A DNA stretch of 64,000 nucleotides from an uncultured Planctomycetales bacterium (GCA_964545575.1 CAZJFL010000001.1:294178-358177); one strand, 5' to 3'; positions 40,860 to 57,926 are shown, counted from the first letter of the stretch. Made by a program: numbers and translations. The notes: generated from the sequence alone by a model not told the origin.

Positions 40860-40861
40860 TT

Positions 40862-42496: not shown

Positions 42497-42628
42497 TTAA
42501 AAGAAAACCGGATTATCAAATACTCGATTTCGCATCGGTATTCGGTAACCCGGCTGTCTTTAAAAATCCCTTTTAAGACCCGTGGCTTTGTGCCCCCACC
42601 TCACGGTGGGTTTACCCTTTCGTCCCGT
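42497..42628 (-). promoter_or_regulatory. c-di-GMP-I (GEMM)-like riboswitch A in the 5' leader of the giant-gene operon. The aptamer is about 42538-42628. The terminator-like platform is about 42497-42550.
   Basis: The minus-strand transcript reads ACGAAAGGGUAAACC-CACC GUGA GGUG-GGGGCACAAAGCCACGGG-UCUUAAAAGGGAUUUUUAAAGAC-AGCCGGGUUACCGAAUACC. Compare the Vibrio Vc2 GEMM GGGCAAACC / GNRA hairpin / GGGACGCAAAGCC / P2 / GCGGGGUUACCGA. The conserved 3' strand CCGGGUUA can instead pair with UAAUCCGG, which is followed by UUUUCUUUU (a putative terminator). Confidence 0.6.
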
Positions 42629-42650
42629 GGCTTATCTTATTTACACGCAA

Positions 42651-42679
42651 AGTATAATATATAGAAGGTGGCTTGTCAA
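42651..42679 (-). promoter_or_regulatory. Sigma70-like promoter for the giant-gene operon. The -35 TTGACA is at 42674-42679, followed by a 17-nt spacer and a -10 TATACT at 42651-42656.
   Basis: I read the reverse complement base by base. The TSS would fall near 42643, about 15 nt before the aptamer. Confidence 0.5.
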
Positions 42680-42754
42680 GCATATTTTTATAGTTAAAAG
42701 GGAGCGTTTTCTTATCGCTGATCCGGGGTGTTTTATGCCTGCTAAAACCACTTA

Positions 42755-42804
42755 GGGACTGTCCCCGACAGGTCTCTTATTAGCTGTTCTTAGGGGACTG
42801 TCCC
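42755..42804. repeat. Palindrome pair gggactgtcccc (42755-42766) and ggggactgtccc (42793-42804). Degenerate extra copies ggggacagaccc and ggggacaatccc lie at 42862-42894.
   Basis: Direct reading. It sits about 75 bp upstream (on the minus strand) of the operon -35. Confidence 0.85.
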
Positions 42805-42885
42805 TGTTTTAGTCTCTATTTTAGGGTCAGCCCCCTTAGGAAGATAAGTAATGGCTCTGACGGGGACAGACCCTTCATTTACGGG

Positions 42886-42933
42886 GACAATCCCTTACAG
42901 ATTGGACATTTTTAAGCTTGCAGAGTGGACATT
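42886..42933. repeat. Recurrent intergenic module aatccct-tacag-attggacattttt, plus a second agtggacatttaa copy
   Basis: The 15-mer cagattggacatttt is shared with 57571-57586. A similar aatccctccattatggacatttt is at 56206-56229. Confidence 0.7.
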
Positions 42934-42934
42934 T

Positions 42935-43008
42935 AACTACGGATTTCACGGAAAAAATCCACGGATTTCACAGAGTATAACCGTAAAATCCGTGTGCAAT
43001 CCGTGTAA
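42935..43008. repeat. Cluster of five or more direct and inverted CACGGATTT / AAATCCGTG repeats immediately 3' of relE
   Basis: The sequence tacggatttcacggaaaaaatccacggatttcacag...gtaaaatccgtgtgcaatccgtgtaatc can form a long imperfect hairpin. It may be a factor-binding array or a terminator-like structure. Confidence 0.6.
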
Positions 43009-43311
43009 TCATTTATATGTATCTTCCCCTCTTTTTCTTAGGACAAATACCCAGATTATCTTCTGCGTTTCATCTACATCATATAAAACGCGATAATCGT
43101 CAATACGGAGTCGATATTGGGCAGTATACTGCACTAATTTAAGCGGCGGGGTAAGTTTTTTAAAAATATTCTTACCTTGCGGATAAGGATTTTCTGCGAG
43201 TCCTGCGGTAGCATCCATAATTGCATCTTGAACTTTACGAGGAAGTTTTACCAGCGCCTTATGGAATTTGTCTTCGAGAGAACGCGTTGGGAATAAAAGG
43301 CGGTATTTCAT
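43009..43311 (-). CDS. Type II toxin, RelE/ParE family (100 aa)
   Basis: The C-terminal block YRLRIDDYRVLYDVDETQKIIWVFVLRKRGEDTYK fits RelE/ParE. It overlaps the upstream antitoxin gene by 4 nt. Confidence 0.75.
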   Translation of the reverse strand: MKYRLLFPTRSLEDKFHKALVKLPRKVQDAIMDATAGLAENPYPQGKNIFKKLTPPLKLVQYTAQYRLRIDDYRVLYDVDETQKIIWVFVLRKRGEDTYK

Positions 43312-43601
43312 TTACGTGCCTTACGGGCTCTTGAGAACAGACGTAGTACAGATACGCCTTCTTTTTTCGCTTTGATTGCCTTTCGACCTTCTTCTACAGC
43401 TTTCAATGTCTCTAAATCCGTAGCTTCATCAATCAGATCGACCATCTCAATAGCTTCCGTATAAGGAATAACTACATCAACAGGAACCCCGCGTTCAGTA
43501 ATAATAAGGGGGTTACCGCCTTTTAAGAGTCTGGATAGGCGTGCTTTAAATTGTCTTATGCCTATGTGCGGTGCCTTTAATAGAATTGTCGCGAGAGTCA
43601 T
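43308..43601 (-). CDS. Phd/YefM-type antitoxin (97 aa)
   Basis: ...PLIITERGVPVDVVIPYTEAIEMVDLIDE... resembles Phd/YefM. A strong RBS AAGGAGG precedes the ATG. It pairs with the downstream RelE-like gene. Confidence 0.7.
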   Translation of the reverse strand: MTLATILLKAPHIGIRQFKARLSRLLKGGNPLIITERGVPVDVVIPYTEAIEMVDLIDEATDLETLKAVEEGRKAIKAKKEGVSVLRLFSRARKARK

Positions 43602-43641
43602 TTTTCTACCTCCTTATGTAGTCTCATTTGTGCCTACATAA

Positions 43642-43669
43642 AATATACCATAGGCTAAACACTTGTCAA
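43642..43669 (-). promoter_or_regulatory. Sigma70-like promoter for the TA pair. The -35 TTGACA is at 43664-43669, followed by a 16-nt spacer and a -10 TATATT at 43642-43647.
   Basis: Read from the reverse complement. It uses the same CTTGACAAG -35 context as the other minus-strand promoters. Confidence 0.45.
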
Positions 43670-43691
43670 GATAAAATTAAAGATTCTTGGT

Positions 43692-44576
43692 TTAAAATCC
43701 TTGTCCTTTTAAACCAAAACCGCCCTGCATAAATTGGATAAGGATAGGGCCGCCGACAATAATTGCCACTACCGGCATGATGAAGAAGATAAGGGGAAAG
43801 AGCATCTTAATCGGGGCTTGTAAAGCCAGGCGTTCACCTCTCTGGAACCTTTGACGGCGGGTTTCTTCGCCTAAGGCATTCAACACATCATAAACCGGAG
43901 TGCCCATACGGTCCGCAGAGACTAAGGTATTCACTAGAGAAAAAACCTCCGTAATATTTAAACGCCTGCTCATCGCCTTTAATGCCTCCTGCCGTGACTT
44001 GCCTACTTTAATTTCCTGAGTAACCATACTTAATTCCTTAATTAGGGGGCTGGGCTTTGAACGCTGGAGCACCCAATCTAGGCCTTGCATAAAATCTAGC
44101 CCTCCGCCGACGCAGAGAGTAAGCAAGTCGATCACATCAGGCAATACCTTTATAATAATCCGGTTACGCTTCTGAATACGTATCTTTAGATAAATATCCG
44201 GCAATAAAAATCCGATGCCAAAAATAATCAAACCCCACAAAGGCTCAAACCTTTTCAGCGTCAAATATACCCCTAAAAATAAACCCAGCATTAATAATTC
44301 TTTTATCCCTAAGTAATCTTCGGGCAGCAAATTTATCTCGGCGGATGACAATTTATCCATTACTGCCTGCCGTCTTAGCTTAGATAAAATAATCCGGTTA
44401 AGGGGAAAAAGCGGGCGGGTAAAAAATAAAGGGACCTTTATGAATTCATCCTTGGGGGATAATTTCGGGGCTTGCGGCTTCAGCTCGGGAGACAACTGCA
44501 TAGGCCGGCGCAAGACAAAAAAGAGCGAAATACTTAAGATCCCGCTAAATAGCAATACGTAGATTAAAACCGGCAT
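43692..44576 (-). CDS. tadC: TadC-like (T2SS-F / GspF domain) pilus inner-membrane protein. The likely start is ATG 44576 (MPVLIYVLL...), overlapping the tadB stop as TAATG with a GGAGGTG RBS.
   Basis: T2SSF-type block LPDVIDLLTLCVGGGLDFMQGLDWV...VSADRMGTPVYDVLNALGEE with flanking TM helices. The ORF track extends it to 44639. Confidence 0.8.
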   Translation of the reverse strand: MPVLIYVLLFSGILSISLFFVLRRPMQLSPELKPQAPKLSPKDEFIKVPLFFTRPLFPLNRIILSKLRRQAVMDKLSSAEINLLPEDYLGIKELLMLGLFLGVYLTLKRFEPLWGLIIFGIGFLLPDIYLKIRIQKRNRIIIKVLPDVIDLLTLCVGGGLDFMQGLDWVLQRSKPSPLIKELSMVTQEIKVGKSRQEALKAMSRRLNITEVFSLVNTLVSADRMGTPVYDVLNALGEETRRQRFQRGERLALQAPIKMLFPLIFFIMPVVAIIVGGPILIQFMQGGFGLKGQGF

Positions 44577-45424
44577 TACACCTCCACGCGGCTTAAACGA
44601 TTTAACATTACCGCTCCGATTACCTCCGAAACCACGCACCAGACCAAAAGAATCCTGCCCACTTCTGATTCTAACATCACATCAAAGAATTGCTTATTGG
44701 TGCTGATCACAAAAAAGGCAAAGATAATAGGCAAGACCGACATAATCATCCCCTGCCACCTCGCCTGCGTAGTCAGGGTTTTAATCTGATCATTGATTCT
44801 TTTTCTGATCCGGATATTCTCGCTTAAATGGGTAAAGATATCGGTCAGGTTTCCGCCGGTTTCCCGCGCTACCAGAATAGCGGTGCTCATTAAATTCAGG
44901 TCTTCAGAGCCCATCTTTTTATTCAGGCGCTCAAAAGAAGTCTCCAGGGGAACTCCCATTTTATTCTCTTTGACCATCAGCGCAAACTCCTGGGAGATGG
45001 GCGCAGGCATGTCTTCGGTTAAGACTTCCATTGCCTGGAGCAAGGATAGGCCGGCTTTTAAAGACTGGCTCAGGTTCACCAAGGCATCGCTTAGCTGGGC
45101 GCCAAACTTAGCCCTGCGGACTTTTTCCATCTGCCGGATGACCAGCATCGGCAGGATAAAACCGATCACAGCCCCGGCAAAAATCAAAATTATATTCTGG
45201 AATAAAAGGAAGGAGGCGACTGCGAAGACGATCGGGCTTACGGAAAAGTAGAGGGCGAGCTTCTTCTGCTCTACCCAGACATACATCTCTTCTAATTTCC
45301 CGGCGGCCCGCTTGGCTTCCTCTTTATGCGCGCGGCCATAGCGCGCAAGAAAGAAAGGCGCCAGCACATAAAAAAGCGAGGCCACTGCCCCGAAGCTAAA
45401 GAGAAAAATCAAAAATTTTAGCAC
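44576..45424 (-). CDS. tadB: TadB-like (T2SS-F domain) pilus inner-membrane protein
   Basis: QLSDALVNLSQSLKAGLSLLQAMEVL...LVARETGGNLTDIFTHLSENIRIRKRINDQIKTLTTQARWQGMIMSVLPI is typical of the TadB/GspF family. Confidence 0.8.
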   Translation of the reverse strand: MLKFLIFLFSFGAVASLFYVLAPFFLARYGRAHKEEAKRAAGKLEEMYVWVEQKKLALYFSVSPIVFAVASFLLFQNIILIFAGAVIGFILPMLVIRQMEKVRRAKFGAQLSDALVNLSQSLKAGLSLLQAMEVLTEDMPAPISQEFALMVKENKMGVPLETSFERLNKKMGSEDLNLMSTAILVARETGGNLTDIFTHLSENIRIRKRINDQIKTLTTQARWQGMIMSVLPIIFAFFVISTNKQFFDVMLESEVGRILLVWCVVSEVIGAVMLNRLSRVEV

Positions 45425-45451
45425 TGCCGGATAATTCTCCTAATTTTTCTG

Positions 45452-45631
45452 TTAGGGATGCGTTGTATAGGGATCGAATTGCCTACCGTGGCCAAAGGTA
45501 TCTCCCACTTCCCGCATCTTGCCTGAAATAGCCCGCTTCAGGTATATCGCCATCCCAATTAATGCTACCACAATTATGAGGATTAGGAAAGCGTATTCTA
45601 TTGAAATAAACGCCTTCTTGGCATTTTTCAT
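45452..45631 (-). CDS. flp: Flp-family pilin paralogue (59 aa, not in the ORF track). Its ATG at 45631 overlaps the upstream stop as ATGA.
   Basis: Translation MKNAKKAFISIEYAFLILIIVVALIGMAIYLKRAISGKMREVGDTFGHGRQFDPYTTHP. It shares the xxIEY + hydrophobic helix + YLKR..G motif with the tandem flp array. Confidence 0.65.
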   Translation of the reverse strand: MKNAKKAFISIEYAFLILIIVVALIGMAIYLKRAISGKMREVGDTFGHGRQFDPYTTHP

Positions 45632-46095
45632 TTTATCTCCACCACCTCTAAACCCACCAGTTTTCTCTTCTCGCCTTTAGCCAGGGTAAAGAGCATTCTT
45701 CTTTTGCCCGGGCGGTAGTCTGCGGCGATAACCACCCTCTCTCTTGTTTGGCTAAATATTCTCCAGTCAGCGAGGGCGTTCGGCTTCCCGCCGGTATAGG
45801 CAAACCCTAAGCTTACCCCCCTGATAAAGACCTCTTTATAATTACGCCGCTCTGCCTCATTAGGCGCCTTAGCGAAACCCGCTCCCACGTCAACTCCCAC
45901 GGCAATCAGCTTATTCCAATCGATAAATTCCCCTACCGAAGCCTTCCCTTCAATCATCCCCTTAAAGATTACGTCACGGCAGAACTCCACATCCTGTTTT
46001 TCTTTGTTCGTGAAAAACATAATCCCGGCAGCCAGGATACTGATAATAAAAACGTAGATAAGCAACCTGTAATCCTTATCCATCTTGATCACCAT
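45628..46095 (-). CDS. Hypothetical membrane-anchored protein (155 aa) inside the tad operon
   Basis: It is an ORF-track ORF with an N-terminal TM (LLIYVFIISILAAGIMFF) and no family recognised. It is tightly packed between the TadG-like gene and flp. Confidence 0.5.
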   Translation of the reverse strand: MVIKMDKDYRLLIYVFIISILAAGIMFFTNKEKQDVEFCRDVIFKGMIEGKASVGEFIDWNKLIAVGVDVGAGFAKAPNEAERRNYKEVFIRGVSLGFAYTGGKPNALADWRIFSQTRERVVIAADYRPGKRRMLFTLAKGEKRKLVGLEVVEIK

Positions 46096-48596
46096 TGGCT
46101 TGTTTTTTCTTTAATTTTCACAAACGGCCTATAACTTGCTCCTTGGTATAATCCATACTCTACCTTTGTCTTACGGGTAACCCTAAGCCACTCACCATCC
46201 ACATGATAATTCGCCCAGGGGTTCCACACCCCCAGCAAGCCCGCTGACTTGCGCGCCTCATCCATCCGCGTCACCTTCACCCAGTGGTCATTGCCTGAGC
46301 CGCTATAATGGTCAAGATAAAAACAAATTTCTTTGACATAATTATTAAAACTATCTTTTTCTGACATCTCCATACGCGCAAAATCAAAGTAGGCCGGCAT
46401 CTCTACGCTTACGGAGTGCTTGCCGCGGGAATCAGTCCAATTATAATAAGCCGGGGAAAAGTAGTAATACCGGCCATAAACAGGATGCGGGGGATCAAAG
46501 CTCAACCCTTGCTCTAATTGATCTAACCAATTTCTTATCCCATAGTCGCCCCCTGGATATTCACCCGGACCGTAGAGCGTATAGAGATATTGATTGAAAG
46601 CAGTAAATAAGGGGACATATTGCTCTACAATAAATTGCTTTTCAATCGTTGCCTTGATATCCTTTGAATAAAGACCACCGCCGGGGGGATACGGAACAGC
46701 AACGACCTCGTAGCTATGACCATTCCAGCTATAATTCTTGCAGGGGACAGGATTGGGCGGCAATATAAAGCCAGTAGTGGGATCGACAACGCAGGCAGTA
46801 AGACTCTCCATTTTGCTCTGTATCTTATTCCTAAGAGCTTCTAAGCCCGGAAACGGATTCGCCCACCCGGGCGGAGTCCCGTAAAATACTACTTCGGGTA
46901 GCGGCTTATCATCCTTATAAGGAGCTTGGGAAAACTGGTCAAACCAGAACCGCCAGTCAGAAATTACCGTGTAAAAAGAGTTCTGCGTCCCTTCATCTAT
47001 TAACTCTTCCAGCGATTCATCCAGTTGCTGCAAGTTGTACCATATCAGGTCCATTGTATCCACGGGCGTCTGCCCCAACTGTGCCGGCCGGCTCCCTGAA
47101 AAAAGCTTTTTTTCCTCATCGGTGTTCCATAACCCTATATCCATCAGGCGGCGCAGGAAAAAAATAACCGGACTATCCTGCCACAGGTTACCCTTAATAC
47201 AACAAAGGTTTTCCTTATTGTTCTGCCTACAAAAAATGCCCGGGGCCCTCGGAGGCGATTCGAGTTCGACGTTGGAAATCAAACCCTTGAGAAACGCTTT
47301 AAACTCTGGTAAATTACGCTGCTTTGGAACGGGGTCACGATAAATATACCCTTTGAGAAAATCTTTTATCTTATCGACTTTTATTTTCTGCATATTAAGC
47401 CGATCCAGCCACCAATAAGCAAACATAGGCGTGGATTCTGTGTAATTGCCGTCTCCGTCAACATCGCAGGGGTCGCGGCCCACTTCAAACTGCGGGTCGA
47501 TAGACCCATCATGATTGCAGTCATATTCGAATGTGCTGTTTGTCATCTGCGGGTCGTCAACAATATTACTTAATACCTGCAGGGCTATTCCTTCTTTTAT
47601 CTGATCGGGCTGAGGCAGGCCTCTTAATGCCCGGGCAAAAGAGCTAAAGGCAGCGGCGAGGTTCTTTAAGCCCTTCTGTCCTATCTCTACTGATTGTCTA
47701 AAGGATAGGTATTGCGCGCCTCCGGTAAGTAGTATGGCAGCTACCAATGCTTCCGGCACCAAAATCGATGCTACTCCTGGCATAGTAATCGTTACCTGGG
47801 TCAAGCCTGTGATAACAGGAGCGAACAGGTCTGATGCCGCCGGAATCATTGAAGCCTTAGCGCCGGCTGCCGTAGCTTCGGCGGCCTTAGTCAAGGCTTC
47901 AGAAAAACCAACAACGCTTGTGCTAACTTGCGGTGGGGCAGCAGCAACGCCTACGCCGGTAAAGACGCACGCTCCCCCGACAGCTAAACCCATTGCTAGC
48001 CCTATAGCCATACCGCTTAGCGCGCTGTTCCAAGTTGACGCGCCCCCCCATCTAAATCTATCTCCCGCAGCAGTCACCCGCGACTGCAACCCTCCTCCTA
48101 TATAACCACCTATCCCCCCTCCTAATAAGCCTGCTCCAGCAAGCACAGCTACTAACACAGGCGCTGCCAAGCCGCCAGTTAAAATTACGATAACCAGGGT
48201 CGCTAATATTACTATGGCGGCTACGATAAACCCCAAAATAACATCCAATATACCATTAGATTTGCATATTTTGGGAGGCGAAGTTTCCGTTCCTTCTATA
48301 TAAGTACCTCCCGGAAGCGGCTGCCTCATTATATTGCGAAAATGCGCTGCCCGCGAAAGCAGCTGTGAGCCAAGGGAAAGCGCAGCCGCGTCGGCAACGG
48401 TAGAGACCTTGGTGGCGGTCAAAGCGACTTCCCCGATATTTACAAAGACCATAATCAATATCAGGACGACCACAAGGATCAGGAGAATAAAAGTGGCTAT
48501 CTGGCCGGCGCAGTCCCCGCACCTGAGATTTCTCAATGAGGTTGTCTTGCTTAATTTATTTATCATCGCCCTATTTTCCTTTAGGCCAATTCTCAA
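46089..48596 (-). CDS. TadG-like pilus-associated protein (835 aa) with a Gly-rich TM region and a large extracellular C-terminal domain
   Basis: The N-terminus ...FILLILVVVLILIMVFVNIGEVALTATKVSTVADAAALSLGSQL matches the TadG/Tad N-terminal domain (hydrophobic segment plus the aDaAALAga motif). Confidence 0.65.
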   Translation of the reverse strand: MRIGLKENRAMINKLSKTTSLRNLRCGDCAGQIATFILLILVVVLILIMVFVNIGEVALTATKVSTVADAAALSLGSQLLSRAAHFRNIMRQPLPGGTYIEGTETSPPKICKSNGILDVILGFIVAAIVILATLVIVILTGGLAAPVLVAVLAGAGLLGGGIGGYIGGGLQSRVTAAGDRFRWGGASTWNSALSGMAIGLAMGLAVGGACVFTGVGVAAAPPQVSTSVVGFSEALTKAAEATAAGAKASMIPAASDLFAPVITGLTQVTITMPGVASILVPEALVAAILLTGGAQYLSFRQSVEIGQKGLKNLAAAFSSFARALRGLPQPDQIKEGIALQVLSNIVDDPQMTNSTFEYDCNHDGSIDPQFEVGRDPCDVDGDGNYTESTPMFAYWWLDRLNMQKIKVDKIKDFLKGYIYRDPVPKQRNLPEFKAFLKGLISNVELESPPRAPGIFCRQNNKENLCCIKGNLWQDSPVIFFLRRLMDIGLWNTDEEKKLFSGSRPAQLGQTPVDTMDLIWYNLQQLDESLEELIDEGTQNSFYTVISDWRFWFDQFSQAPYKDDKPLPEVVFYGTPPGWANPFPGLEALRNKIQSKMESLTACVVDPTTGFILPPNPVPCKNYSWNGHSYEVVAVPYPPGGGLYSKDIKATIEKQFIVEQYVPLFTAFNQYLYTLYGPGEYPGGDYGIRNWLDQLEQGLSFDPPHPVYGRYYYFSPAYYNWTDSRGKHSVSVEMPAYFDFARMEMSEKDSFNNYVKEICFYLDHYSGSGNDHWVKVTRMDEARKSAGLLGVWNPWANYHVDGEWLRVTRKTKVEYGLYQGASYRPFVKIKEKTSQW

Positions 48597-48999
48597 ATAT
48601 ATTCAGCTTCGGATAATCCTGCTCATTCTGTTCATCGACTATCCCCGGCGTAGAGTCAGGAGGCGTAACATAGCGCCATGCCTTGCAAATGTAAGGGCGG
48701 TTACAAGGATCTGGCGGTTGTATTTCCCTTCCGTTTAGGACGTCTAAACACTTAGTGCACACGAGCTTGGGTGTGGACACCTCTACGCTTCCTGCGGCAA
48801 CAGCTGTAGCTTCATAATCCACTTGTCGCTGAACCATCCGGCTGCTCAGCCAGACAAATATCCTTGCTGTAGCTACCAGCAAAAGCAGCATAAGAAAAAT
48901 ACTAATACTCAGCTCCAAGGTAACCTGCGCCTTTCTCTGGCTCCTGCGGCCGGCTACGGCGGTAGAAAATAATAAACTCTTCTTCGCCCTAACACACAT
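48571..48999 (-). CDS. TadE-like pseudopilin (142 aa)
   Basis: The N-terminus RRSQRKAQVTLELSISIFLMLLLLVATARI is a TadE-like N-terminal segment. Confidence 0.65.
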   Translation of the reverse strand: MCVRAKKSLLFSTAVAGRRSQRKAQVTLELSISIFLMLLLLVATARIFVWLSSRMVQRQVDYEATAVAAGSVEVSTPKLVCTKCLDVLNGREIQPPDPCNRPYICKAWRYVTPPDSTPGIVDEQNEQDYPKLNIFENWPKGK

Positions 49000-49024
49000 C
49001 TGCTTTTTAGTTCTCCTGCGCTAA

Positions 49025-51198: not shown

Positions 51199-51246
51199 TT
51201 TTGCGCTATTTTGTCTATACCTATATCGCTTAGTTGCCTTGTGACC

Positions 51247-51582
51247 CTACGGTTTAATCCCGCTCAGCGGCTTCCAACTTGCAACATCTTCTGCGCTCTT
51301 TTCTTTTGTTTCACCGCCCGACTGTAAGGTAGACGTAGTTACTCGATTCTGGATTGTCTGCACGCTGGTTGTATCTTTCGTTGTCTCAAAGTCTACCTGA
51401 TTAGAGGTTGCGTTAGCCTCAAATTGCGCTCCGATATCGTCAGTGGACTGGCGCAGTTTTCCCTGCACGCCGCGTTTCATATAAATTTGTATGGCGAATA
51501 ATGCCGCTACCACCACAGCGACAATTATGGCATATTCCAAGGTGCTTTGGCCTTTTTTGTGCATACACATCGCTATACTCAC
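51247..51582 (-). CDS. flp: Flp-family pilin paralogue 8 (111 aa; the likely start is the internal MHKKGQ...)
   Basis: ...MHKKGQSTLEYAIIVAVVVAALFAIQIYMKRGVQGKLRQ... Confidence 0.7.
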   Translation of the reverse strand: MSIAMCMHKKGQSTLEYAIIVAVVVAALFAIQIYMKRGVQGKLRQSTDDIGAQFEANATSNQVDFETTKDTTSVQTIQNRVTTSTLQSGGETKEKSAEDVASWKPLSGIKP

Positions 51583-51600
51583 CTCCTTATTGGCTTATGG

Positions 51601-51915
51601 CTACTGTTGTACCGGTACCTTTACTGTTTGGGCCCCGCTACGCTCTGTCCTCCTATCAAGAGACTGACGGCTGACCGCGCCACCTAATTTGGTCTCATCC
51701 GTCTCGGTGTAGCCTTTTTCAGTATTGGTATAACTAGATTCGAGATAATACGGTTCATACTGGCCCGTGACATTAGCGGCTTTATCTACGGCGTATCTTA
51801 TACCGCCCTGCATACTTCTCTTTAAATACACCTGCATGGCCATAGCCGCCCCAACAACCAAAGCAATCACAATAGCATACTCGGCAGTGCTTTGGGCCCT
51901 TTTATGTCTTAACAT
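51601..51915 (-). CDS. flp: Flp-family pilin paralogue 7 (104 aa)
   Basis: MLRHKRAQSTAEYAIVIALVVGAAMAMQVYLKRSMQGGIR... Confidence 0.7.
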   Translation of the reverse strand: MLRHKRAQSTAEYAIVIALVVGAAMAMQVYLKRSMQGGIRYAVDKAANVTGQYEPYYLESSYTNTEKGYTETDETKLGGAVSRQSLDRRTERSGAQTVKVPVQQ

Positions 51916-51936
51916 TATTGTTCACCTCCTTAGTTA

Positions 51937-52323
51937 TTATTCGTATAGCTTTTCGTCCTTTAAATCCGTATTCACCTTTTCGGCGTCGTTTCCTAAGGCG
52001 CTTCTTTTTACGTCAGCCGGAGTTACTACGTCATATCTAGATGTGCCCACTCCTAGCTCCTGTGTGCCAAATCGTTCCGTTGTAACCTGATCGCCTGTCT
52101 GTGTAGTGGTATATTTGGAAGTCATACGGCCGGCGGAATACTGTTCGCCGATTTTATCTGTGGATTCACGCAGTTTTCCCTGCACGCCGCGGCGCATATA
52201 TATCTGTATGGTCAATAAAGTTCCCACTACTACTGCAATAATCACCGCATATTCCAGAGTGCTTTGTCCCAGCTTATTTTTAGGCATCACTTTATCACCT
52301 CCCTTAATCCCTGCTAAAAACAC
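51937..52323 (-). CDS. flp: Flp-family pilin paralogue 6 (128 aa; the likely start is the internal MPKNKLGQ...)
   Basis: ...MPKNKLGQSTLEYAVIIAVVVGTLLTIQIYMRRGVQGKLRE... Confidence 0.7.
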   Translation of the reverse strand: MFLAGIKGGDKVMPKNKLGQSTLEYAVIIAVVVGTLLTIQIYMRRGVQGKLRESTDKIGEQYSAGRMTSKYTTTQTGDQVTTERFGTQELGVGTSRYDVVTPADVKRSALGNDAEKVNTDLKDEKLYE

Positions 52324-52356
52324 TATCTTAACCGCTCACAAACCTTTGCTTAAGAT

Positions 52357-52767
52357 TTAAGGCGGATTCTGATTTCCCGGCTCACCAAAGCGATATTCCT
52401 GATAATCATCTTTTGCCTGCCTAGTCGTCTGATCAGTAGTACGTGCTACTTTACCTCCCTTGTCCATCTTTGAAGTATCCTTCGAACCGGCTACGGTTGT
52501 CGAAGTTGACACAGCGCTCAGCCCCTCAGGTTCGTACTGATTACTTAGCTCCACGCCCTGCTTAGCGCCAATATCATTCCAATAGTCCTGATGATCTTCA
52601 AGTGCTTTCACAGACTGATCACTTGCATCCTTATATCTACCCTGTATGCCTCTTTTAACATAAGTCTGCATCCCGACTACTGCTGCTATTACTAAGCCGA
52701 TGAGAATCGCGTATTCAGCGGTGCTCTGGGCCTTTTTATTCCTGAATAACCTTAGCATTTTTTTCAC
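52357..52767 (-). CDS. flp: Flp-family pilin paralogue 5 (136 aa)
   Basis: ...NKKAQSTAEYAILIGLVIAAVVGMQTYVKRGIQGRYK... Confidence 0.7.
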   Translation of the reverse strand: MKKMLRLFRNKKAQSTAEYAILIGLVIAAVVGMQTYVKRGIQGRYKDASDQSVKALEDHQDYWNDIGAKQGVELSNQYEPEGLSAVSTSTTVAGSKDTSKMDKGGKVARTTDQTTRQAKDDYQEYRFGEPGNQNPP

Positions 52768-52790
52768 CTCCTTGGCTTTTGGTCGATATT

Positions 52791-52961
52791 TTAGAACTTC
52801 TTCGCTACATTCTGAATCGCAGTATCCGCATCAGTAAGGGTTTTATTTACGGCCGGCTTAATATACTCTTTAGCCGCGAAGAGAATAACCCCGATGATAG
52901 CGGTAATTACCAACACATATTCCAAGATGCTCTGGCCTCTTCCGTATCTTACTCTTGCCAT
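52791..52961 (-). CDS. flp: Flp-family pilin paralogue 4 (56 aa, below the ORF-track cut-off)
   Basis: I derived MARVRYGRGQSILEYVLVITAIIGVILFAAKEYIKPAVNKTLTDADTAIQNVAKKF from the reverse complement. An RBS AAGGAG lies 7 nt upstream of the ATG at 52961. Confidence 0.6.
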   Translation of the reverse strand: MARVRYGRGQSILEYVLVITAIIGVILFAAKEYIKPAVNKTLTDADTAIQNVAKKF

Positions 52962-52987
52962 ATCTTCTCCTTTCCAATCATTCTTCT

Positions 52988-53179
52988 TTATTTTGTCATA
53001 TTCAATATCTCCCCCGAGCTGTCCCCAATTTTTGTCGCTGATTTATTCATTAACTGCCCTACACCGGTGCTACTGGGATCTTGTTTCATAGTGAACACAA
53101 AAGCGGCAACTACACCAACGACTAGCGTCAGAATAATGATGTACTCCAATGTATTCTGCCCTTTCTTCTTTCTTAACAT
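52988..53179 (-). CDS. flp: Flp-family pilin paralogue 3 (63 aa)
   Basis: MLRKKKGQNTLEYIIILTLVVGVVAAFVF.... An RBS GGAGGTGA lies upstream. Confidence 0.7.
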   Translation of the reverse strand: MLRKKKGQNTLEYIIILTLVVGVVAAFVFTMKQDPSSTGVGQLMNKSATKIGDSSGEILNMTK

Positions 53180-53203
53180 GTACTCACCTCCTTATTTTTT
53201 ATA

Positions 53204-53356
53204 CTATGGCCTGACTACTTCTGCGTTAACCTGATCTTCTATAACTTTAAGGTTTGCGTTAAGGCTGCGCTGCACATAGGTGCTCATTGCCATTAGCGCT
53301 GCTACCACTACCGCAATAATCACTGAATATTCCAATACGCTTTGGCCTTTTTTCAT
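53204..53356 (-). CDS. flp: Flp-family pilin paralogue 2 (51 aa, below the ORF-track cut-off)
   Basis: I derived MKKGQSVLEYSVIIAVVVAALMAMSTYVQRSLNANLKVIEDQVNAEVVRP from the reverse complement of 53204-53356. Confidence 0.55.
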   Translation of the reverse strand: MKKGQSVLEYSVIIAVVVAALMAMSTYVQRSLNANLKVIEDQVNAEVVRP

Positions 53357-53359
53357 CTT

Positions 53360-53575
53360 TTACCCCGGATTAATTATGCGAGAGGCGACCCTCCCAAAGA
53401 ATCCCACGGTTAGTCTTGTTCCTTGCAAAGTTCTTTTTACATTTACCAAAAAATTTAATCCCGGGCCTACCGACGCAATTGTTAGGGCTGTAATCACCGC
53501 GAAAAGAACAAAATATTCTATAGCCGCCTGTCCTTTTTTGCCTTTGCGGATTTTTAAAGACTTTATAAAACTCAT
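53360..53575 (-). CDS. flp: Flp-family pilin paralogue 1 (71 aa), the first gene of the tad operon
   Basis: MSFIKSLKIRKGKKGQAAIEYFVLFAVITALTIASVG... shows the Flp G/xxxxEY processing-site motif. Confidence 0.7.
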   Translation of the reverse strand: MSFIKSLKIRKGKKGQAAIEYFVLFAVITALTIASVGPGLNFLVNVKRTLQGTRLTVGFFGRVASRIINPG

Positions 53576-53580
53576 TTCTA

Positions 53581-53745
53581 ATCCTCCAATAAAAAAACCG
53601 TTTTACCAAAATATTTTCGGCTTTCGGTAACCCGGCTTAAAGTCCTCGCTTCCGACCCTAAAGCAGTTTGCATCCAAATTGTTGACGAGCACCGCCGTGG
53701 CTTTTCTCTCCACTTAACCTCCTTAAGTGGATCATCCGTTGCCGT
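53581..53745 (-). promoter_or_regulatory. Candidate c-di-GMP-I (GEMM)-like riboswitch C in the leader of the flp/tad operon. The aptamer is about 53608-53745. The terminator alternative is about 53581-53626.
   Basis: The transcript reads CGGCAACGGAUGAU-CCACUUAA GGAGG UUAAGUGG-AGAGAAAAGCCACGG-(long P2)-GGACUUUAAGCCGGGUUACCGAAAGCC. It shares AAAGCCACGG and GCCGGGUUACCGAA with riboswitch A and with the GEMM 3' consensus GCGGGGUUACCGA. CCGGGUUACC can alternatively pair with GGUAAAACGG, which is followed by UUUUUUU (a terminator). The match is weaker than for A and B, with a pentaloop in place of the GNRA loop. Confidence 0.4.
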
Positions 53746-53770
53746 CTTTTATTGTTTCAACTACAGTTAA

Positions 53771-53799
53771 AATATAGCATTTATAACTAGCGCTGTCAA
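53771..53799 (-). promoter_or_regulatory. Sigma70-like promoter for the flp/tad operon. The -35 TTGACA is at 53794-53799, followed by a 17-nt spacer and a -10 TATATT at 53771-53776.
   Basis: Read from the reverse complement. It has the same architecture as the promoters of the other two riboswitch-controlled units. Confidence 0.5.
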
Positions 53800-53833
53800 T
53801 GATATTTCGCTACTTTAAGAAACCGCTTTCTTA

Positions 53834-53883
53834 GGGACAGTCCCCTTAGGATTCAATAGCTTAGCTCTGGCGGGGACAGTCCC
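53834..53883. repeat. Palindrome pair gggacagtcccc (53834-53845) and ggggacagtccc (53872-53883), 35 bp upstream of the flp promoter -35
   Basis: Direct reading. The second copy abuts the stop codon of the 773-aa gene. Confidence 0.85.
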
Positions 53884-56204
53884 TACGCTAAGAACCAGAG
53901 CCGCTTGCCCCCGGTGAAAATAATCTCCTTTTCATTCAGCCTGCGGCAGGCGTATTCCAGCGCCTTTAAATACGGATATCCCGCAGGGGGTTGAAAGGTC
54001 ACCAAAAGGCTATCCTCTTGCGCCTCCATCCGGCAGGTTAAGCCATAAAACTGCTCTTTTGCCGTCGGGAAATCCTTATCCTCATAGCCGATAGGCAGGA
54101 GGTGCCAGCGGGCATAGAGATCCAGGGCTTTCAGGTAATAACTGAATATCGCGCTGATATCAAAATCCGCTCCCTTGGGCAATTCCAGGTTCTCCGTCGA
54201 GAAAAAGCGCTGGGAGGTGGCGGTGTAGGTGAACAATTCGACTTTGCGGCTATAATCCTGAAAGGCCTCTTCCAAGTTTGGCCAGCGGTTAAGATAAGTA
54301 GAAGCCAGCTCTTCCAGATTTAATTTTTCCGCGGGGAAATTGCTCAGGATCAAGAGCCGCGCCTTCTCGGCAGGACCGGCCTTTAAGGCACAGCCTCTTA
54401 ATGTAACACTTTTATTTGCATCAGGTTGTATCAAGTCTAATTCTATATTCGCCAGATAAAAGTCCTTTTTTAAAGGCGCGAAATGAAAGGGCTTAAACTC
54501 GCCCAACGTCTTGACCTGACGGTATTCGGCAAACTGCCAGGGCCAGAGGCCAAAGATAAAATGGCGCTTTTTCATCGGGTTTACCCGTATAATTTCTATC
54601 TCTTCAAACCTGTTGCTGTAAAGGCCTAAGCTCATAATCCGCTTTTCATCCCCCTCTAAACCTAAGATAAAATCAAAAAACTCTTTGGTCGGCAAATCAT
54701 AACCCGGAGCCATAAAAAGCACGAAAGGCGCGTCCTCCTGAAAATATCTTTTTACGTAAGTCTTTATATTATAAATAGTTGTGGAAAAATTATAGGGGAT
54801 ATGCACCGTGGACCAGGCTGTATGCAGCTGGCCGTCTAAATAGACTGCTGTGCCGTCGGATAAGTTTACTTTGATCCCACGCACTTCCTGCAAGACACTG
54901 GCAATTGTGCGCAGTATGTCCATTGGCAAGGCTTTAATTGCCTGTAATTCATTCAGATAACCTGACAGCTCTTCAGGGCTGAACCTATAATTTAACAGCG
55001 GCCATAAGCCGTAATCCGGCTTGCTCTGGGCAACGACTGATACTTCAAAGAGGCTATTGTAGATGAAAAACTCAGTTTTGGCTAAAAACTCTTTTTCTTC
55101 GTTTTTCAAGCGGCTGTTGATTACATCAGCAATAAAGCGGCTTCCGCCTAAAAGATAATCCGCGGATTTCAGCAAAATCGCCCCTAAACCCGTAAATGTG
55201 CCTTCAGTTTGGACAATTTTAGCGGCTTTAAGATTAGCTTCCTCTACAGCCCTGGCCTTGGCTTCGGCTTCAGCTGCAGCTTTTCTTTCTGTTTCTACCT
55301 GAGCCTTTAATGCGGCTTCGAACTTTGCCTTTTCTTCTGCTTCCCTGCGGGCTATTTCTTCGGCTAAGCGCTTTTCGCGGGCCTCGACTTCTGCGCGCGC
55401 GCGCTCATCCGCTTCATGCTTGGCCTTGACTTCGGCTTCTGCTTCTTGGCGCGCTTTCTCCTCCGCTTCTATGCGCGCTTTTTCTTCGGCTTCTGCCTTA
55501 GCTTTTAATTCCGCTTCTTCTCTGGCCCTAGCTTCCGCTTCCTCTTTGGCTTTTCTTTCCGCTTTAAGCTTTGCTTTTTCTTCGGCTTCTTTGCGCGCTT
55601 TTTCTTCGGCTTCTGCCTTAGCTTTAGCCTCTGCTTCCTGACGCGCTTTTTCTTCTGCCTCTCGACGAGCCTTCTCTTGCGCCTCAGCTTCGGCTTTGGC
55701 GCGTGCTTCTGCTTCTAGCCGCGCCTGTTCTTCTGCTTTAATTCTGGCTTCTTCCTCGGCCCTGGCTTTTGCCTCGGCTTCGGCCTTTGCCTTTACCTCA
55801 GCTTCAGCTTTCAGCTTCGCTTCTTCTGCTGCCTCGGCTTCGGCTTTAAGCTTGGCTTCCTCTGCTACCCTAACTTCGGCAGAAGGCGGGGGCGCCGGCA
55901 TTTCTATCGGCTTAGTTACTTCTGGCGGAAATTCCAAAACAGGGACAGTCCCCTTCGGGGACAGTCCCTTTTCAATCACACCTTTGAGCTTAAGGGCATA
56001 CTTTCTCTTGGTGCGCCTTCTACCCACCGGCATGCTTAAGCTGTTCTCTTTAAACAAAGCGTTAATGCTGGACTTAGAGACTTTAGCCTGAAACTTAGTT
56101 TCTATCAAGGCGGCCATACTGCGGCAGCTGAGCTTAGGATCGGCTTTTTTGCTCTCCAGAATAAAAGTGACTATTTCCGGTTTTAATTTATAAATTACGC
56201 CCAC
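53883..56204 (-). CDS. 773-aa protein with an N-terminal HTH-like segment, an E/A/K-rich coiled-coil low-complexity region of about 230 aa, and a C-terminal globular domain of about 430 aa. Its GTG start has a strong GGAGGG RBS.
   Basis: It is an ORF-track ORF. The N-terminus reads KPEIVTFILESKKADPKLSCRSMAALIETKFQAKVSKSSINALFKEN (helix-turn-helix-like). The middle reads AEEAKLKAEAEV.AKAEAEAKARAEEEAR.... The C-terminus contains ...STYLNRWPNLEEAFQDYSRKV. It has no TM segment. Confidence 0.7.
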   Translation of the reverse strand: MGVIYKLKPEIVTFILESKKADPKLSCRSMAALIETKFQAKVSKSSINALFKENSLSMPVGRRRTKRKYALKLKGVIEKGLSPKGTVPVLEFPPEVTKPIEMPAPPPSAEVRVAEEAKLKAEAEAAEEAKLKAEAEVKAKAEAEAKARAEEEARIKAEEQARLEAEARAKAEAEAQEKARREAEEKARQEAEAKAKAEAEEKARKEAEEKAKLKAERKAKEEAEARAREEAELKAKAEAEEKARIEAEEKARQEAEAEVKAKHEADERARAEVEAREKRLAEEIARREAEEKAKFEAALKAQVETERKAAAEAEAKARAVEEANLKAAKIVQTEGTFTGLGAILLKSADYLLGGSRFIADVINSRLKNEEKEFLAKTEFFIYNSLFEVSVVAQSKPDYGLWPLLNYRFSPEELSGYLNELQAIKALPMDILRTIASVLQEVRGIKVNLSDGTAVYLDGQLHTAWSTVHIPYNFSTTIYNIKTYVKRYFQEDAPFVLFMAPGYDLPTKEFFDFILGLEGDEKRIMSLGLYSNRFEEIEIIRVNPMKKRHFIFGLWPWQFAEYRQVKTLGEFKPFHFAPLKKDFYLANIELDLIQPDANKSVTLRGCALKAGPAEKARLLILSNFPAEKLNLEELASTYLNRWPNLEEAFQDYSRKVELFTYTATSQRFFSTENLELPKGADFDISAIFSYYLKALDLYARWHLLPIGYEDKDFPTAKEQFYGLTCRMEAQEDSLLVTFQPPAGYPYLKALEYACRRLNEKEIIFTGGKRLWFLA
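55230..55900. repeat. Low-complexity GC-rich repeat tract (gcttcTgcttc / ggcttcggc units) encoding the E/A/K coiled coil
   Basis: The plus-strand ORFs 55420..55641 and 55696..56091 (ASASS.AF...) are antisense shadows of this tract. Confidence 0.8.
55942..55968. repeat. Palindrome pair gggacagtcccc / ggggacagtccc separated by 3 nt, in frame inside the 773-aa gene (it encodes KGLSPKGTVPV)
   Basis: Direct reading. Confidence 0.85.
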
Positions 56205-56205
56205 A

Positions 56206-56229
56206 ATCCCTCCATTATGGACATTTTAA
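56206..56229. repeat. Module aatccctccattatggacattttaa overlapping the RBS of the 773-aa gene. A further tttggacattc copy is at 56280-56290.
   Basis: Compare 42886-42914 and 57563-57586. Confidence 0.6.
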
Positions 56230-56375
56230 TCTCAATTAAAGCCTATCATAATCATCTGTTTTTGTCAAGTTCTATTTAGTTTGGACATTCTTTATTAATA
56301 CCTGGCACGAAAGTAATCGGGTTCCTTGTACCTAAGCGAGGACACCCTGCCGATTGGTAGAAAGGGTGTTCCTAA

Positions 56376-56403
56376 AAGATTTTACTTGACAACTCCAAAA
56401 ATA
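56376..56403 (+). promoter_or_regulatory. Sigma70-like promoter for the AAA ATPase gene. The -35 TTGACA is at 56376-56381, followed by a 16-nt spacer and a -10 TAAAAT at 56398-56403. The mRNA would be near-leaderless.
   Basis: Direct reading. The ATG at 56420 is only about 10 nt from the predicted TSS. Confidence 0.4.
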
Positions 56404-56419
56404 TATGTAAAATGGAACT

Positions 56420-57559
56420 ATGTATTCCAGATTAATAATACCCCCGGAAGATAAAAGTTTCTTTTTATTCGGGCCCCGCGGCACAGGAAAAACGACTTGG
56501 GTTAAATCAAAATTTACCAAGGGCATCTATTTAGACCTCCTTGAAGCCGAGCTTTTTAATGACCTTCTGGCCAATCCTCAAAGGTTGGAAAACCTTATAC
56601 CAAAGAATTTTGATGACTGGATTATTATAGATGAAATCCAGCGAGTCCCAGAACTTCTGAACGAAGTTCATCGGCTTATCGAAAAGAATAAGTATAAGTT
56701 TATTTTAACCGGTTCCAGCGCCAGAAAAATAAGAAGAAAAGGAATAAACTTATTAGCCGGGCGTGCCTTATCATATCATCTCTATCCGCTCACTGCCGCG
56801 GAACTCGGAGAGGACTTTAACCTCGACCATTCGCTGAGCTACGGCCAGCTTCCTTGCGTTTATACCGAAGAAGATCCCAAGGCTTATTTAGAAAGCTATG
56901 TCAAAACTTATCTTGAGGAAGAAGTACAGCAGGAGGGATTTACCAGAAACCTGGGGGCATTTTCCAGATTTTTAGAGGCGGCCAGCTTTTCGCAAGGCTC
57001 GGTCCTAAATATCTCGTCGGTGGCGCGCGATTGCAGCGTAGAGCGAAAAGTGGTAGAAAATTATTTCTCAATATTGAAAGACCTGCTCATCGCTTATAGA
57101 ATCCCCGTCTTTACAAAAAAGGCTAAAAGGCGCCTGGTAACGCATCCTAAATTTTATTTCTTTGACGTTGGGCTTTATCGCGCACTAAGACCAAGGGGCC
57201 CTCTTGATAGTCCGGAAGAAATCGGCGGCCATGCATTTGAAACGCTCTTTCTGCAAGAGTTGGTGGCAATCAATGCCTATTTGAAATCAGGCTACAATAT
57301 ATTTTATTGGAGGGCTTACAATAATACCGAAGTAGATTTCGTGCTGTACGGAAGTAAAGGCATCCTGGCTTTTGAAGTTAAAAGGACAGGTAAAATTTCT
57401 AACTCAATGCTTAGAGGATTGAGGGCTTTTCAAAAAGATTATCCCGGCTCCAAGCTGCATTTCATTTATGGCGGAGAACGCCATCTTCGGGAAGGAGAGA
57501 TCGTAATCCTTCCCATAAAAGATACCTTAACAGAGCTTCCGAAAATACTTTCCCGTTAA
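56420..57559 (+). CDS. AAA-family ATPase (AAA_14 N-terminal domain plus a DUF4143-type C-terminal domain), 379 aa
   Basis: A Walker A FGPRGTGKTT, a Walker B/sensor IIIDEIQRVPELLNEV, and an overall architecture typical of this widespread stand-alone ATPase family. Confidence 0.85.
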   Translation: MYSRLIIPPEDKSFFLFGPRGTGKTTWVKSKFTKGIYLDLLEAELFNDLLANPQRLENLIPKNFDDWIIIDEIQRVPELLNEVHRLIEKNKYKFILTGSSARKIRRKGINLLAGRALSYHLYPLTAAELGEDFNLDHSLSYGQLPCVYTEEDPKAYLESYVKTYLEEEVQQEGFTRNLGAFSRFLEAASFSQGSVLNISSVARDCSVERKVVENYFSILKDLLIAYRIPVFTKKAKRRLVTHPKFYFFDVGLYRALRPRGPLDSPEEIGGHAFETLFLQELVAINAYLKSGYNIFYWRAYNNTEVDFVLYGSKGILAFEVKRTGKISNSMLRGLRAFQKDYPGSKLHFIYGGERHLREGEIVILPIKDTLTELPKILSR

Positions 57560-57562
57560 AAG

Positions 57563-57586
57563 AATCCCTGTCAGATTGGACATTTT
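57563..57586. repeat. Module aatccctgtcagattggacatttt
   Basis: It shares cagattggacatttt with 42899-42914. Confidence 0.7.
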
Positions 57587-57593
57587 CTAATAC

Positions 57594-57674
57594 GGGGACA
57601 GTCCCCGCAGGAGGCGGGGCACCAAACCATCCGATAGGTTTGGGTGCCTACTCGTTGCCTAAGGGGACAGTCCC
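57594..57674. repeat. Palindrome pair ggggacagtcccc (57594-57606) and ggggacagtccc (57663-57674) flanking a hairpin ggcaccaaacc/ggtttgggtgcc. It lies 35 bp upstream of the riboswitch-B promoter -35.
   Basis: Direct reading. Confidence 0.85.
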
Positions 57675-57709
57675 TGTTCAACAAAAAAGCTAAAAAAGGG
57701 GTGTGTAAG

Positions 57710-57738
57710 TTGACAAGTTGCACAAGGAATGATATACT
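57710..57738 (+). promoter_or_regulatory. Sigma70-like promoter. The -35 TTGACA is at 57710-57715, followed by a 17-nt spacer and a -10 TATACT at 57733-57738.
   Basis: I read it base by base. Both hexamers are near consensus. Confidence 0.55.
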
Positions 57739-57779
57739 TTATATGTAAAGAATATAGTTCTTTCAGAATAAAGGGAAGA

Positions 57780-57926
57780 CGATAAAGGTAAACTATCCGA
57801 AAGGATGGGGCGCAAAGCTATAGAGCCTAATCTCCGCGTAAGCGCGGGGCATGGCAGTCAGTTGCCGAAATCAAGATACGAAATGCTATAAGCCCATTCT
57901 AATAGGATAGAGTGGGCTTTTTTATT
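57780..57926 (+). promoter_or_regulatory. c-di-GMP-I (GEMM)-like riboswitch B with an intrinsic terminator, upstream of the RHH and adhesin genes
   Basis: AAAGGUAAAC-UAUCC GAAA GGAUG-GGGCGCAAAGC-UAUAGAGCCUAAUCUCCGCGUAAGCGCGG-GGCAUGGCAGUCAGUUGCCGAAAUC, compared with Vc2 CAGGGCAAAC-CAUUC GAAA GAGUG-GGACGCAAAGCC-...-GGUAGGUAGCGGGGUUACCGAUGG. The GNRA tetraloop hairpin, the GCGCAAAGC block, the GCC-UAA block and the 3' receptor-like region are all in the right order. Confidence 0.6.
57891..57926 (+). terminator. Rho-independent terminator (11-bp stem agcccattcta/tagagtgggct with one G-U pair, a 6-nt loop, then TTTTTTATT)
   Basis: Direct reading. It lies between the aptamer and the RBS AGGAG of the next gene, consistent with being the riboswitch expression platform. 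Confidence 0.7.

Follow-up and report, generated by a model that had tools for sequence, protein, structure and literature searches.

Repetitive extragenic palindromic (REP) elements, the hairpin-forming REP doublets known as REPINs and the REP-associated tyrosine transposases (RAYTs) of the Y1 HUH type constitute a known system to which palindromic repeats can be compared (PMC3116915, PMC3337134, PMC5581495, PMC3479197). Its typical features are short imperfect palindromes arranged in doublets whose two units are complementary to each other and a short spacer apart, hairpins with an internal mismatch, copies that are mostly extragenic, clustered, decaying and specific to a genome in sequence, repeats in inverted orientation around a small transposase gene, and vertically inherited RAYT genes with a reported fixed syntenic position. 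Here we analyse GGGACWGTCCC palindrome doublets in a 64-kb stretch of DNA (the window, to which all positions refer unless another locus is named) from an uncultured Planctomycetales bacterium (GCA_964545575.1, CAZJFL010000001.1:294178-358177). With a probability of roughly 70%, these doublets are copies of a mobile REP/REPIN-like palindromic repeat rather than a conserved part of a regulatory cassette, and the features listed above recur either in the doublets themselves or in their counterparts in related loci.

A motif scan of the window that allowed at most one mismatch returned 22 strand-matches to GGGACAGTCCC, compared with 0.43 expected, which corresponds to an excess of about 50-fold. 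All matches fall between 40.1 and 57.7 kb and group into five perfect GGGACWGTCCC doublets, A to E. The doublets share the architecture GGGACWGTCCCC-N(3, 26, 26, 27 or 56)-GGGGACWGTCCC with arms that are complementary save for the central base, and folding of all five as single-stranded DNA yields a 12-bp stem with one central W·W mismatch (z-scores of -2.4 to -6.5). On the plus strand the central base is T in doublets A and B and A in doublets C, D and E.

Doublet A (40134..40184, units at 40134 and 40174; GGGACTGTCCCC-N27-GGGGACTGTCCC) is located in frame within a giant open reading frame (ORF). Doublet B (42755..42804, units at 42755 and 42794) lies 75 nt upstream of the -35 element of the giant operon and is adjoined by three degenerate palindrome copies at 42824, 42863 and 42884 (span 42824..42894; GGGTCAGCCCCC, GGGACAGACCC and GGGACAATCCC), which look like decayed members of the same repeat. 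Doublet C (53834..53883, units at 53834 and 53873) overlaps the TAG stop codon of the gene for a 773-residue (773-aa) protein, 34 nt upstream of the flp/tad -35 element, while doublet D (55942..55968, units at 55942 and 55958), with a gap of 3 nt, is found in frame inside the 773-aa ORF. Doublet E (57594..57674, units at 57595 and 57664) begins 35 nt past the stop codon of an AAA_14 gene; its 56-nt spacer contains a hairpin of its own, and it lies 35 nt upstream of the -35 element of an operon comprising an 87-aa gene and an adhesin gene. Within the window, three doublets and the three relics are intergenic and two doublets (A and D) are inside ORFs.

The initial annotation had described a cassette common to three operons, consisting of a palindrome pair, a promoter and a cyclic di-GMP (c-di-GMP) riboswitch. 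Near-consensus sigma-70-like promoters are indeed present at all three operons, each with 11 of 12 matches: TTGACA-17-TATACT for the giant operon (42651..42679, minus strand; an orthologous promoter is found in the related locus L123), TTGACA-17-TATATT with an extended TG for the flp/tad operon (53771..53799, minus strand; ortholog in L127) and TTGACA-17-TATACT for the operon of the 87-aa gene and the two-partner-secretion adhesin (57710..57738, plus strand). The promoter sequence that had been quoted for all of them, TTGACAAG, occurs at the B and E loci, but the C locus reads TTGACAGC instead. Likewise, the palindrome pair accompanies the three operons as doublets B, C and E and the distance of about 35 bp to the -35 element is correct for two of them (C and E), but the description was incomplete, as five doublets exist and A and D lie inside genes.

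Paired inverted-repeat sites upstream of a -35 element resemble transcription factor operators, and the doublets might accordingly be operators through which a dimeric, lineage-specific DNA-binding protein controls the giant, flp/tad and adhesin operons jointly and in concert with c-di-GMP. The position of three doublets 34, 35 and 75 nt upstream of near-consensus promoters speaks for this possibility, as do the perfect conservation of the 11-mers among the copies and the 50-fold excess of the motif. On the other hand, the distance between palindrome and -35 element is variable (34, 35, 75, 43 and 51 nt), and two of the five doublets are located within coding DNA.

Orthologous Omnitrophota loci (L123 to L128) were fetched via homologs of the 773-aa protein and comprise five orthologous tad/giant loci. 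Their tad genes follow a conserved order of rotamase, RcpC, secretin, TadZ/A, 773-aa family gene, flp pilins and TadB/C, with the giant gene next in L123. Neither GGGACNGTCCC nor even GGACWGTCC has a single copy in L123 to L128, and in L129 no doublet is found near the giant-gene promoter, the motif occurring there only inside the giant gene. Instead, different, species-specific palindromes occupy the same positions in the relatives, and these same palindromes flank a Y1_Tnp (PF01797) gene. In L127, GGGACGTC-N17-GGGTGTCCCC overlaps the TAG stop codon of the 773-family gene and precedes the promoter and riboswitch of flp, the position that doublet C has in the window, and in both L127 and L128 the same repeat, as the doublet TAGGGACGTC-N17-GGGTGTCCCCT, is found inverted on either side of the Y1 gene. 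L123 has clusters of GGGACACCC and GGGTGTCCC beside its Y1_Tnp gene, ahead of the 773-family promoter and ahead of the promoter and riboswitch of the giant gene, the last of these matching the position of doublet B. A third type of repeat, TAAGGGACCGTTTCCCTAT, surrounds the Y1_Tnp gene of L131 and lies directly upstream of the giant-gene promoter. Three further orthologs of the Y1 gene (L252 to L254) are situated between TadZ/A and the 773-family gene and are flanked by inverted arrays of GGGACGTC.

The RAYT-like Y1_Tnp genes (L123 7879-8361; L127 9345-9824; L128 3416-3895; L252, L253 and L254 6001-6483; L131 391-951) occupy the same place in the tad loci of Omnitrophota, with TadZ/A (with or without a DUF192 gene) on one side and the 773-family gene on the other, and the window is devoid of a Y1 gene at this site. 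In L252 a conserved box, described below, is followed directly by the repeat (AGATTGGACATTTTCTAGGGACGTC), and the window reads CAGATTGGACATTTTCTAATACGGGGACAGTCCCC at 57572-57606, so that doublet E sits where the relatives have the succession repeat, Y1 gene, repeat. What the relatives conserve instead of the palindrome is the TTGACA-N17-TATA(C/T)T promoter, a c-di-GMP-I-type leader and the ATGTCCAATCTG boxes, which precede the giant operon and also occur at the 773-aa gene. Upstream of its giant gene, L129 also carries a palindromic repeat that is unrelated to the GGGACWGTCCC motif (..cattgcgagcgaccgaagg.. / ..gattgcttcc..ctcctcgcaatgatgg..; 3260-3300 and 3700-3800).

Different palindromes at the same intergenic positions could in principle be read as co-evolution of an operator with its factor. 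However, the motif is missing from the orthologous promoters, its substitutes there are the palindromes found around Y1 transposase genes, and L129 carries it within the giant gene and not near the promoter. In other Omnitrophota, the same motif is found beside housekeeping genes, and it occurs across many phyla, with no regulator gene as a shared neighbour in the GTDB loci listed. Operator function, whose sites would be expected at orthologous promoters and not in coding DNA, at unrelated genes and in association with transposase genes, is therefore unlikely. Thus, a perfect palindrome which at three promoters tempts one to read it as an operator behaves in the relatives as a selfish repeat.

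The distribution of the motif in other genomes was assessed with the pattern GGGACWGTCCCC-N(3-33)-GGGGACWGTCCC in one genome per GTDB species and in a metagenome collection. At least 120 stretches with the paired pattern were found in each of the two collections, compared with an estimate of less than one match in random sequence of the size of the GTDB scan. Among the matches listed are Omnitrophota (12 loci), Planctomycetota, Kiritimatiellia, Actinomycetota, Bacillota, Bacteroidota, Acidobacteriota, Proteobacteria and others, and several other genomes yield more than one motif locus. In loci with a G+C content below 0.5, 54 of 72 pairs lie outside ORFs of at least 200 aa. In the listed GTDB loci, pairs with the same central base (AA/TT, 116) outnumber true hairpin pairs (AT/TA, 37), and some of the listed loci contain tandem arrays with a period of 25-28 nt. 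Clustering of all ORFs from the 120 GTDB loci did not reveal a shared neighbouring protein family, be it a regulator or an insertion sequence (IS) transposase, and homologs of the window proteins were not detected in these loci. In other Omnitrophota, the doublet is located beside argG, glgC, an acetyltransferase gene and a tRNA gene. A search for the motif as a string in the literature returned eukaryotic primers and sites only.

The link to Y1 transposases extends to these genomes. A hidden Markov model built from the Omnitrophota Y1 homologs was run on the 240 listed loci (1.63 Mb), and seven of the nine Y1-like ORFs lie at most 400 nt from a motif copy, although such neighbourhoods make up 14% of the sequence (binomial p = 3e-5). 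The Y1 gene of L098 has GTCTAGCATTTGGGGACWGTCCCCAATTG on both sides in inverted orientation, as found for the sister motifs of L127, L123 and L252 to L254. Five of the motif-adjacent Y1 genes belong to one long subfamily with palindrome arrays 5' of the gene. The presumed tie between palindrome and promoters dissolves in other genomes, where the motif has the distribution of a generic repeat, with copies also in coding DNA, near housekeeping genes and next to Y1 genes.

A unit of about 55 nt, TAGCCAGTA-GGGACTGTCCCC-loop-GGGGACTGTCCC-ACGACAAGATAAG, is common to three Omnitrophota species (L085 6631-6661 and 7897-7927; L010 1645-1694; L060 876-926), where it is located beside argG, glgC and an acetyltransferase gene and, in L085, on both sides of argG. 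Head-to-tail arrays of the 13-mer GGGGACWGTCCCC with a period of 25-28 nt were observed in Conexibacter, Acidobacteriota, Lachnospiraceae and Kuenenia (L022 879-1030; L025 6350-6470; L078 5311-5400; L031 5805-5880).

The two copies inside genes occupy sites that appear tolerant of insertion. Doublet A is positioned about 225 codons from the start of the giant ORF, at a variable loop within the C39 peptidase domain of the N-terminus, with ..QGQSPKNNTLIDLSGTVPF.. as the encoded peptide. Doublet D encodes KGLSPKGTVPV in a non-conserved linker of the 773-aa family and is absent from the closest homolog. In an alignment of the C39 domain of the giant protein (A3), the palindrome-encoded GLSP/GQSP..GTVP is found in two variable loops (columns 270-300 and 345-370) in 7 of 15 sequences. 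On the DNA level the giant-gene copies range from a perfect doublet (L129) over a doublet with one mismatch (L130) to degenerate relics (L131), a series that gives the impression of insertions in tolerant loops with subsequent decay. A comparable situation is reportedly found in the Rickettsia palindromic elements (RPEs) of Ogata and co-workers (2000), which are said to insert in frame in protein-coding genes. The shared feature is the tolerance of in-frame palindromic repeats that add short peptides in surface loops or linkers; in contrast to RPEs, the inserts described here are much shorter (27-51 nt) and lie in a C39 peptidase loop and a linker, and homology is not expected.

Taken as a REP/REPIN-like repeat, the palindrome would be a short element capable of forming a hairpin, of the kind found on the flanks of an IS200-like, RAYT-type Y1 transposase, its presumed agent of spread. 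Its copies would have built up in the few intergenic gaps of the locus, which contain the promoters as well and so give the copies an apparent link to promoters. Two of them, A and D, would have landed in frame in tolerant, non-conserved coding stretches. The repeat is presumably mobilised by a Y1 transposase, and the source genome probably holds many more copies.

Several observations weigh against this interpretation or set the repeat apart from classical REPs. No Y1-like ORF is present in the window, and the copies counted are those of a 64-kb stretch of the source genome. Each of the ten 11-mers that make up the doublets is perfect, which fits a recent spread but would fit selection as well, and three doublets (B, C and E) have a strong promoter closely downstream, at nearly equal distance in two cases. 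The recurrence of the peptide at the same two giant-gene sites exceeds what simple random insertion would lead one to expect. At several of the adjacent Y1 genes of the long subfamily, palindromes are present 5' of the transposase gene only and could represent the gene's own control region. Furthermore, the GTAG head of classical proteobacterial REPs is not a general feature: it is seen at doublet C and in L010, L060, L085 and L036, but the outer flanks read xTA in 7% and G in 69% of cases, and a GTAG-tagged REP was rejected as a general description. Unlike REP elements, two window copies lie in frame in genes, the hosts are Omnitrophota and many other phyla and not Gammaproteobacteria, and a nearly identical 13-mer core (GGGGACWGTCCCC) is shared across phyla. 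If the assignment is correct, REP/RAYT-like systems appear to exist well beyond Proteobacteria, with a shared 13-mer core and the ability to sit in frame in protein loops.

Since the doublets form stable hairpins, they might also serve the upstream genes as 3'-terminal hairpins in RNA or DNA, be it by terminating transcription, by insulation or by stabilising the mRNA, a role that could coexist with a selfish origin and for which host use of REP elements provides a precedent. Doublets B, C and E are each located downstream of a gene on the same strand, with C on the 773-aa stop codon and E shortly behind the AAA_14 stop codon, and in other loci (e.g. L042, L061 and L074) A and T runs flank many copies. 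Nevertheless, loops of 26-56 nt and the lack of a T run on the transcribed strand do not match terminators in the window, where a terminator scan yields only small sub-hairpins on the non-transcribed strand. Moreover, a canonical terminator-like hairpin of 14 bp with a T run (42960..42994, minus strand) already ends the upstream tad/toxin-antitoxin unit, so the palindromes are not needed there for this purpose, and termination at the in-ORF doublets A and D would be harmful. We consider a 3'-end function improbable as an explanation of the doublets.

The occurrence of both orientations of the central base implies that inversion between copies would be possible, which raises the question of recombination sites for phase-variable inversion or excision between operons. 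No recombinase gene is found nearby, however, and the window aligns collinearly and without gaps, at 99.96-100% identity, to two independent assemblies of other samples. To our knowledge, a doublet centre of 1 nt is also unlike the crossover regions of known recombinase sites. Such a role therefore has very little probability. Two further candidates were discarded. A sigma-54 promoter or enhancer-binding-protein site was rejected by inspection due to the wrong spacing of TGGACA..TTGCA, and an assignment of the doublets as IS terminal inverted repeats around the 773-aa gene was rejected because the 773-aa family is found in the same tad context in five related loci without the palindromes.

The riboswitch part of the proposed cassette fared better than the palindrome. 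Operons for pili and adhesins are a typical gene class for c-di-GMP riboswitches, and here, too, the leaders are located between the promoter and the first gene of operons of this type. The initial annotation had assigned a GEMM-like leader to all three operons, and two of them exceed the Rfam gathering scores. The operon of the 87-aa gene and the adhesin is led by a canonical c-di-GMP-I aptamer (RF01051; 57777..57869, plus strand; 70 bits versus a gathering score of 35), and a terminator-like hairpin with a T run 3' of it (57890..57919, plus strand) is probably its expression platform. The operon consisting of a 393-aa gene, a 163-aa gene and the giant gene, in this order, is led by a c-di-GMP-I-GGC aptamer (RF03167; 42540..42625, minus strand; 65.9 bits versus a gathering score of 59). 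For the flp/tad leader, a search of a 231-nt stretch gave no Rfam match even at E<=10 other than spurious ones. Using a covariance model (R1) that was built from four orthologous flp-leader riboswitches of relatives (alignment A7), a full-length match with 70 bits and an E-value of 1e-16 was obtained at 53619..53746 (minus strand). Compared with R1, the GC..GC closing pair is missing and the 3-bp helix beside the binding core is broken, which together with the match itself indicates that the third leader is a homolog of c-di-GMP-I riboswitches with doubtful competence.

In the relatives, the flp leader is a c-di-GMP-I variant with a long P3 element (L126 43 bits, L127/L128 40, L252 45 and L254 39), and this long variant lies above the Rfam threshold ahead of the flp genes in four distinct relatives (L126, L127/L128, L252 and L254). 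The GGC variant is positioned upstream of the C39-type giant gene in five out of five Omnitrophota loci, namely the window, L123 (20959-21053), L129 (3948-4032), L130 (3740-3836) and L131 (1285-1382); the giant gene behind it in L123 encodes 40,116 aa. Relative to the c-di-GMP-I family, the giant-gene leader is thus a GGC variant and the flp leader a long-insert subclass whose core pairs are broken in the window. We know of no established ligand of the GGC variant (RF03167). On the sequence level, control of these surface-structure operons by c-di-GMP-type riboswitches is supported, and for the giant-gene and flp leaders this predicted control is conserved across Omnitrophota. Of the dual control by a DNA-binding factor and c-di-GMP that had been suggested, this half can be retained, whereas the palindrome proposed as operator is absent from the orthologous loci, where Y1-flanking palindromes take its place.

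Genes for a FIST-domain protein, a histidine kinase and a response-regulator GGDEF protein adjoin the tad locus in relatives (L125 5688-9295; L127 1-2150; L123 1-684), and are a plausible local source of the c-di-GMP signal. The Omnitrophota giant-gene literature searched mentions the C39 N-terminus, and a 2026 preprint also notes the neighbouring Tad genes. As the words 'riboswitch' and 'c-di-GMP' were not found in the giant-gene literature searched, the link between riboswitch and giant gene appears to be unreported there. The location of giant genes, Flp/Tad pilus genes and a two-partner-secretion adhesin behind c-di-GMP-type riboswitches offers a lead for work on Omnitrophota.

A second conserved element is the ATGTCCAATCTG box. 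Upstream of the palindromes and the promoter of the giant operon, an exact copy is found at 42898-42909 and a copy with one mismatch at 42921-42932 (both minus strand). The 773-aa gene carries a looser variant at 56213-56224 in its 5' untranslated region (5'UTR) just before the ribosome-binding site and a variant with two mismatches at 56277-56288 just upstream of the -35 element (both minus strand), and another exact box is located between the AAA_14/DUF4143 gene and doublet E (57572-57583, minus strand). Every 773-family gene of the relatives (L123, L125, L126 and L127) has a box in its 5'UTR, with a constant distance to the start codon, and the box position just upstream of the -35 element of the 773-family gene is shared by L123 and the window. 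Arrays of boxes precede the giant-gene promoter in L123 (two), L130 (two), L131 (three variants) and L129 (six in tandem and one inverted). Among the boxes at giant-gene and 773-family genes, those of L129 are at 3480-3585, those of L123 at 9918-9993 and 20556-20607 and those of L130 at 3439-3465. These loci (166 kb) contain 13 copies of the exact 11-mer of the box, compared with one copy in 1.63 Mb of control loci. The AAA_14/DUF4143 ATPase gene (around 56420-57559) is flanked by two similar box regions (56277-56300 and 57570-57595; ..TTGGACATTCTTTATTAATACC and ..TTGGACATTTTCTAATACGG), and it looks as if this gene had been inserted into, or had duplicated, the upstream region of the 773-aa gene.

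The 773-aa protein (gene 53883..56204, minus strand) belongs to an Omnitrophota-only family that is conserved in tad loci. The N-terminus of the family gives weak matches to transposase-type helix-turn-helix domains (HTH_32, E 6e-4; HTH_33, E 4e-3), both below the Pfam cut-offs, and is followed by a coiled coil and a C-terminal domain. The E/A/K-rich coiled coil is encoded by a repeat with a 24-nt period (55200-55860, minus strand), the length of which varies widely among homologs. An AlphaFold model of the C-terminal 435 aa reached a predicted local distance difference test score (pLDDT) of 85 and a predicted template modelling score (pTM) of 0.85. The best Foldseek matches of this model are transposases, with an E-value of 1.4e-3 for the Tn5 transposase but TM-scores of only 0.17-0.25, so that the domain resembles DDE transposases weakly, and a search of the PDB with the family profile returned low-complexity coiled-coil matches only. 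Based on these similarities we hypothesise that the 773-aa protein may be a domesticated transposase and a candidate for binding the box.

Combining these elements, control of the giant and tad operons in Omnitrophota might be exerted by the ATGTCCAATCTG box arrays, by the 773-aa family, a transposase-like protein with a transposase-type helix-turn-helix and a weak DDE/RNase-H-like fold that would attach to the boxes and thereby also control the gene encoding it, and by the c-di-GMP-I-GGC and c-di-GMP-I riboswitches, with the syntenic Y1 gene and its palindromes as residents of the locus that were possibly co-opted. We regard this scheme as tentative, with the odds against it. If true, a second messenger and a regulator derived from a transposase would jointly switch a predatory or attachment apparatus whose genes reach 40,000 codons in length. 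In any case, the box motif and the transposase-like protein are concrete candidates for regulation on the DNA level.

With respect to the remaining genes of the window, the label of the 87-aa protein as a ribbon-helix-helix (RHH) protein is unverified; a significant Pfam match was not obtained, and its sole match is Fea1 with an E-value of 0.013, which is below the threshold. The giant gene is represented by an open frame on the minus strand at 2..40861 in a stop-to-stop scan, which comprises more than 13,600 codons and runs to the start of the window. Genes for a ParE-type toxin and a Phd/YefM-type antitoxin (43009-43601, minus strand) separate the tad operon from the region that precedes the giant operon.

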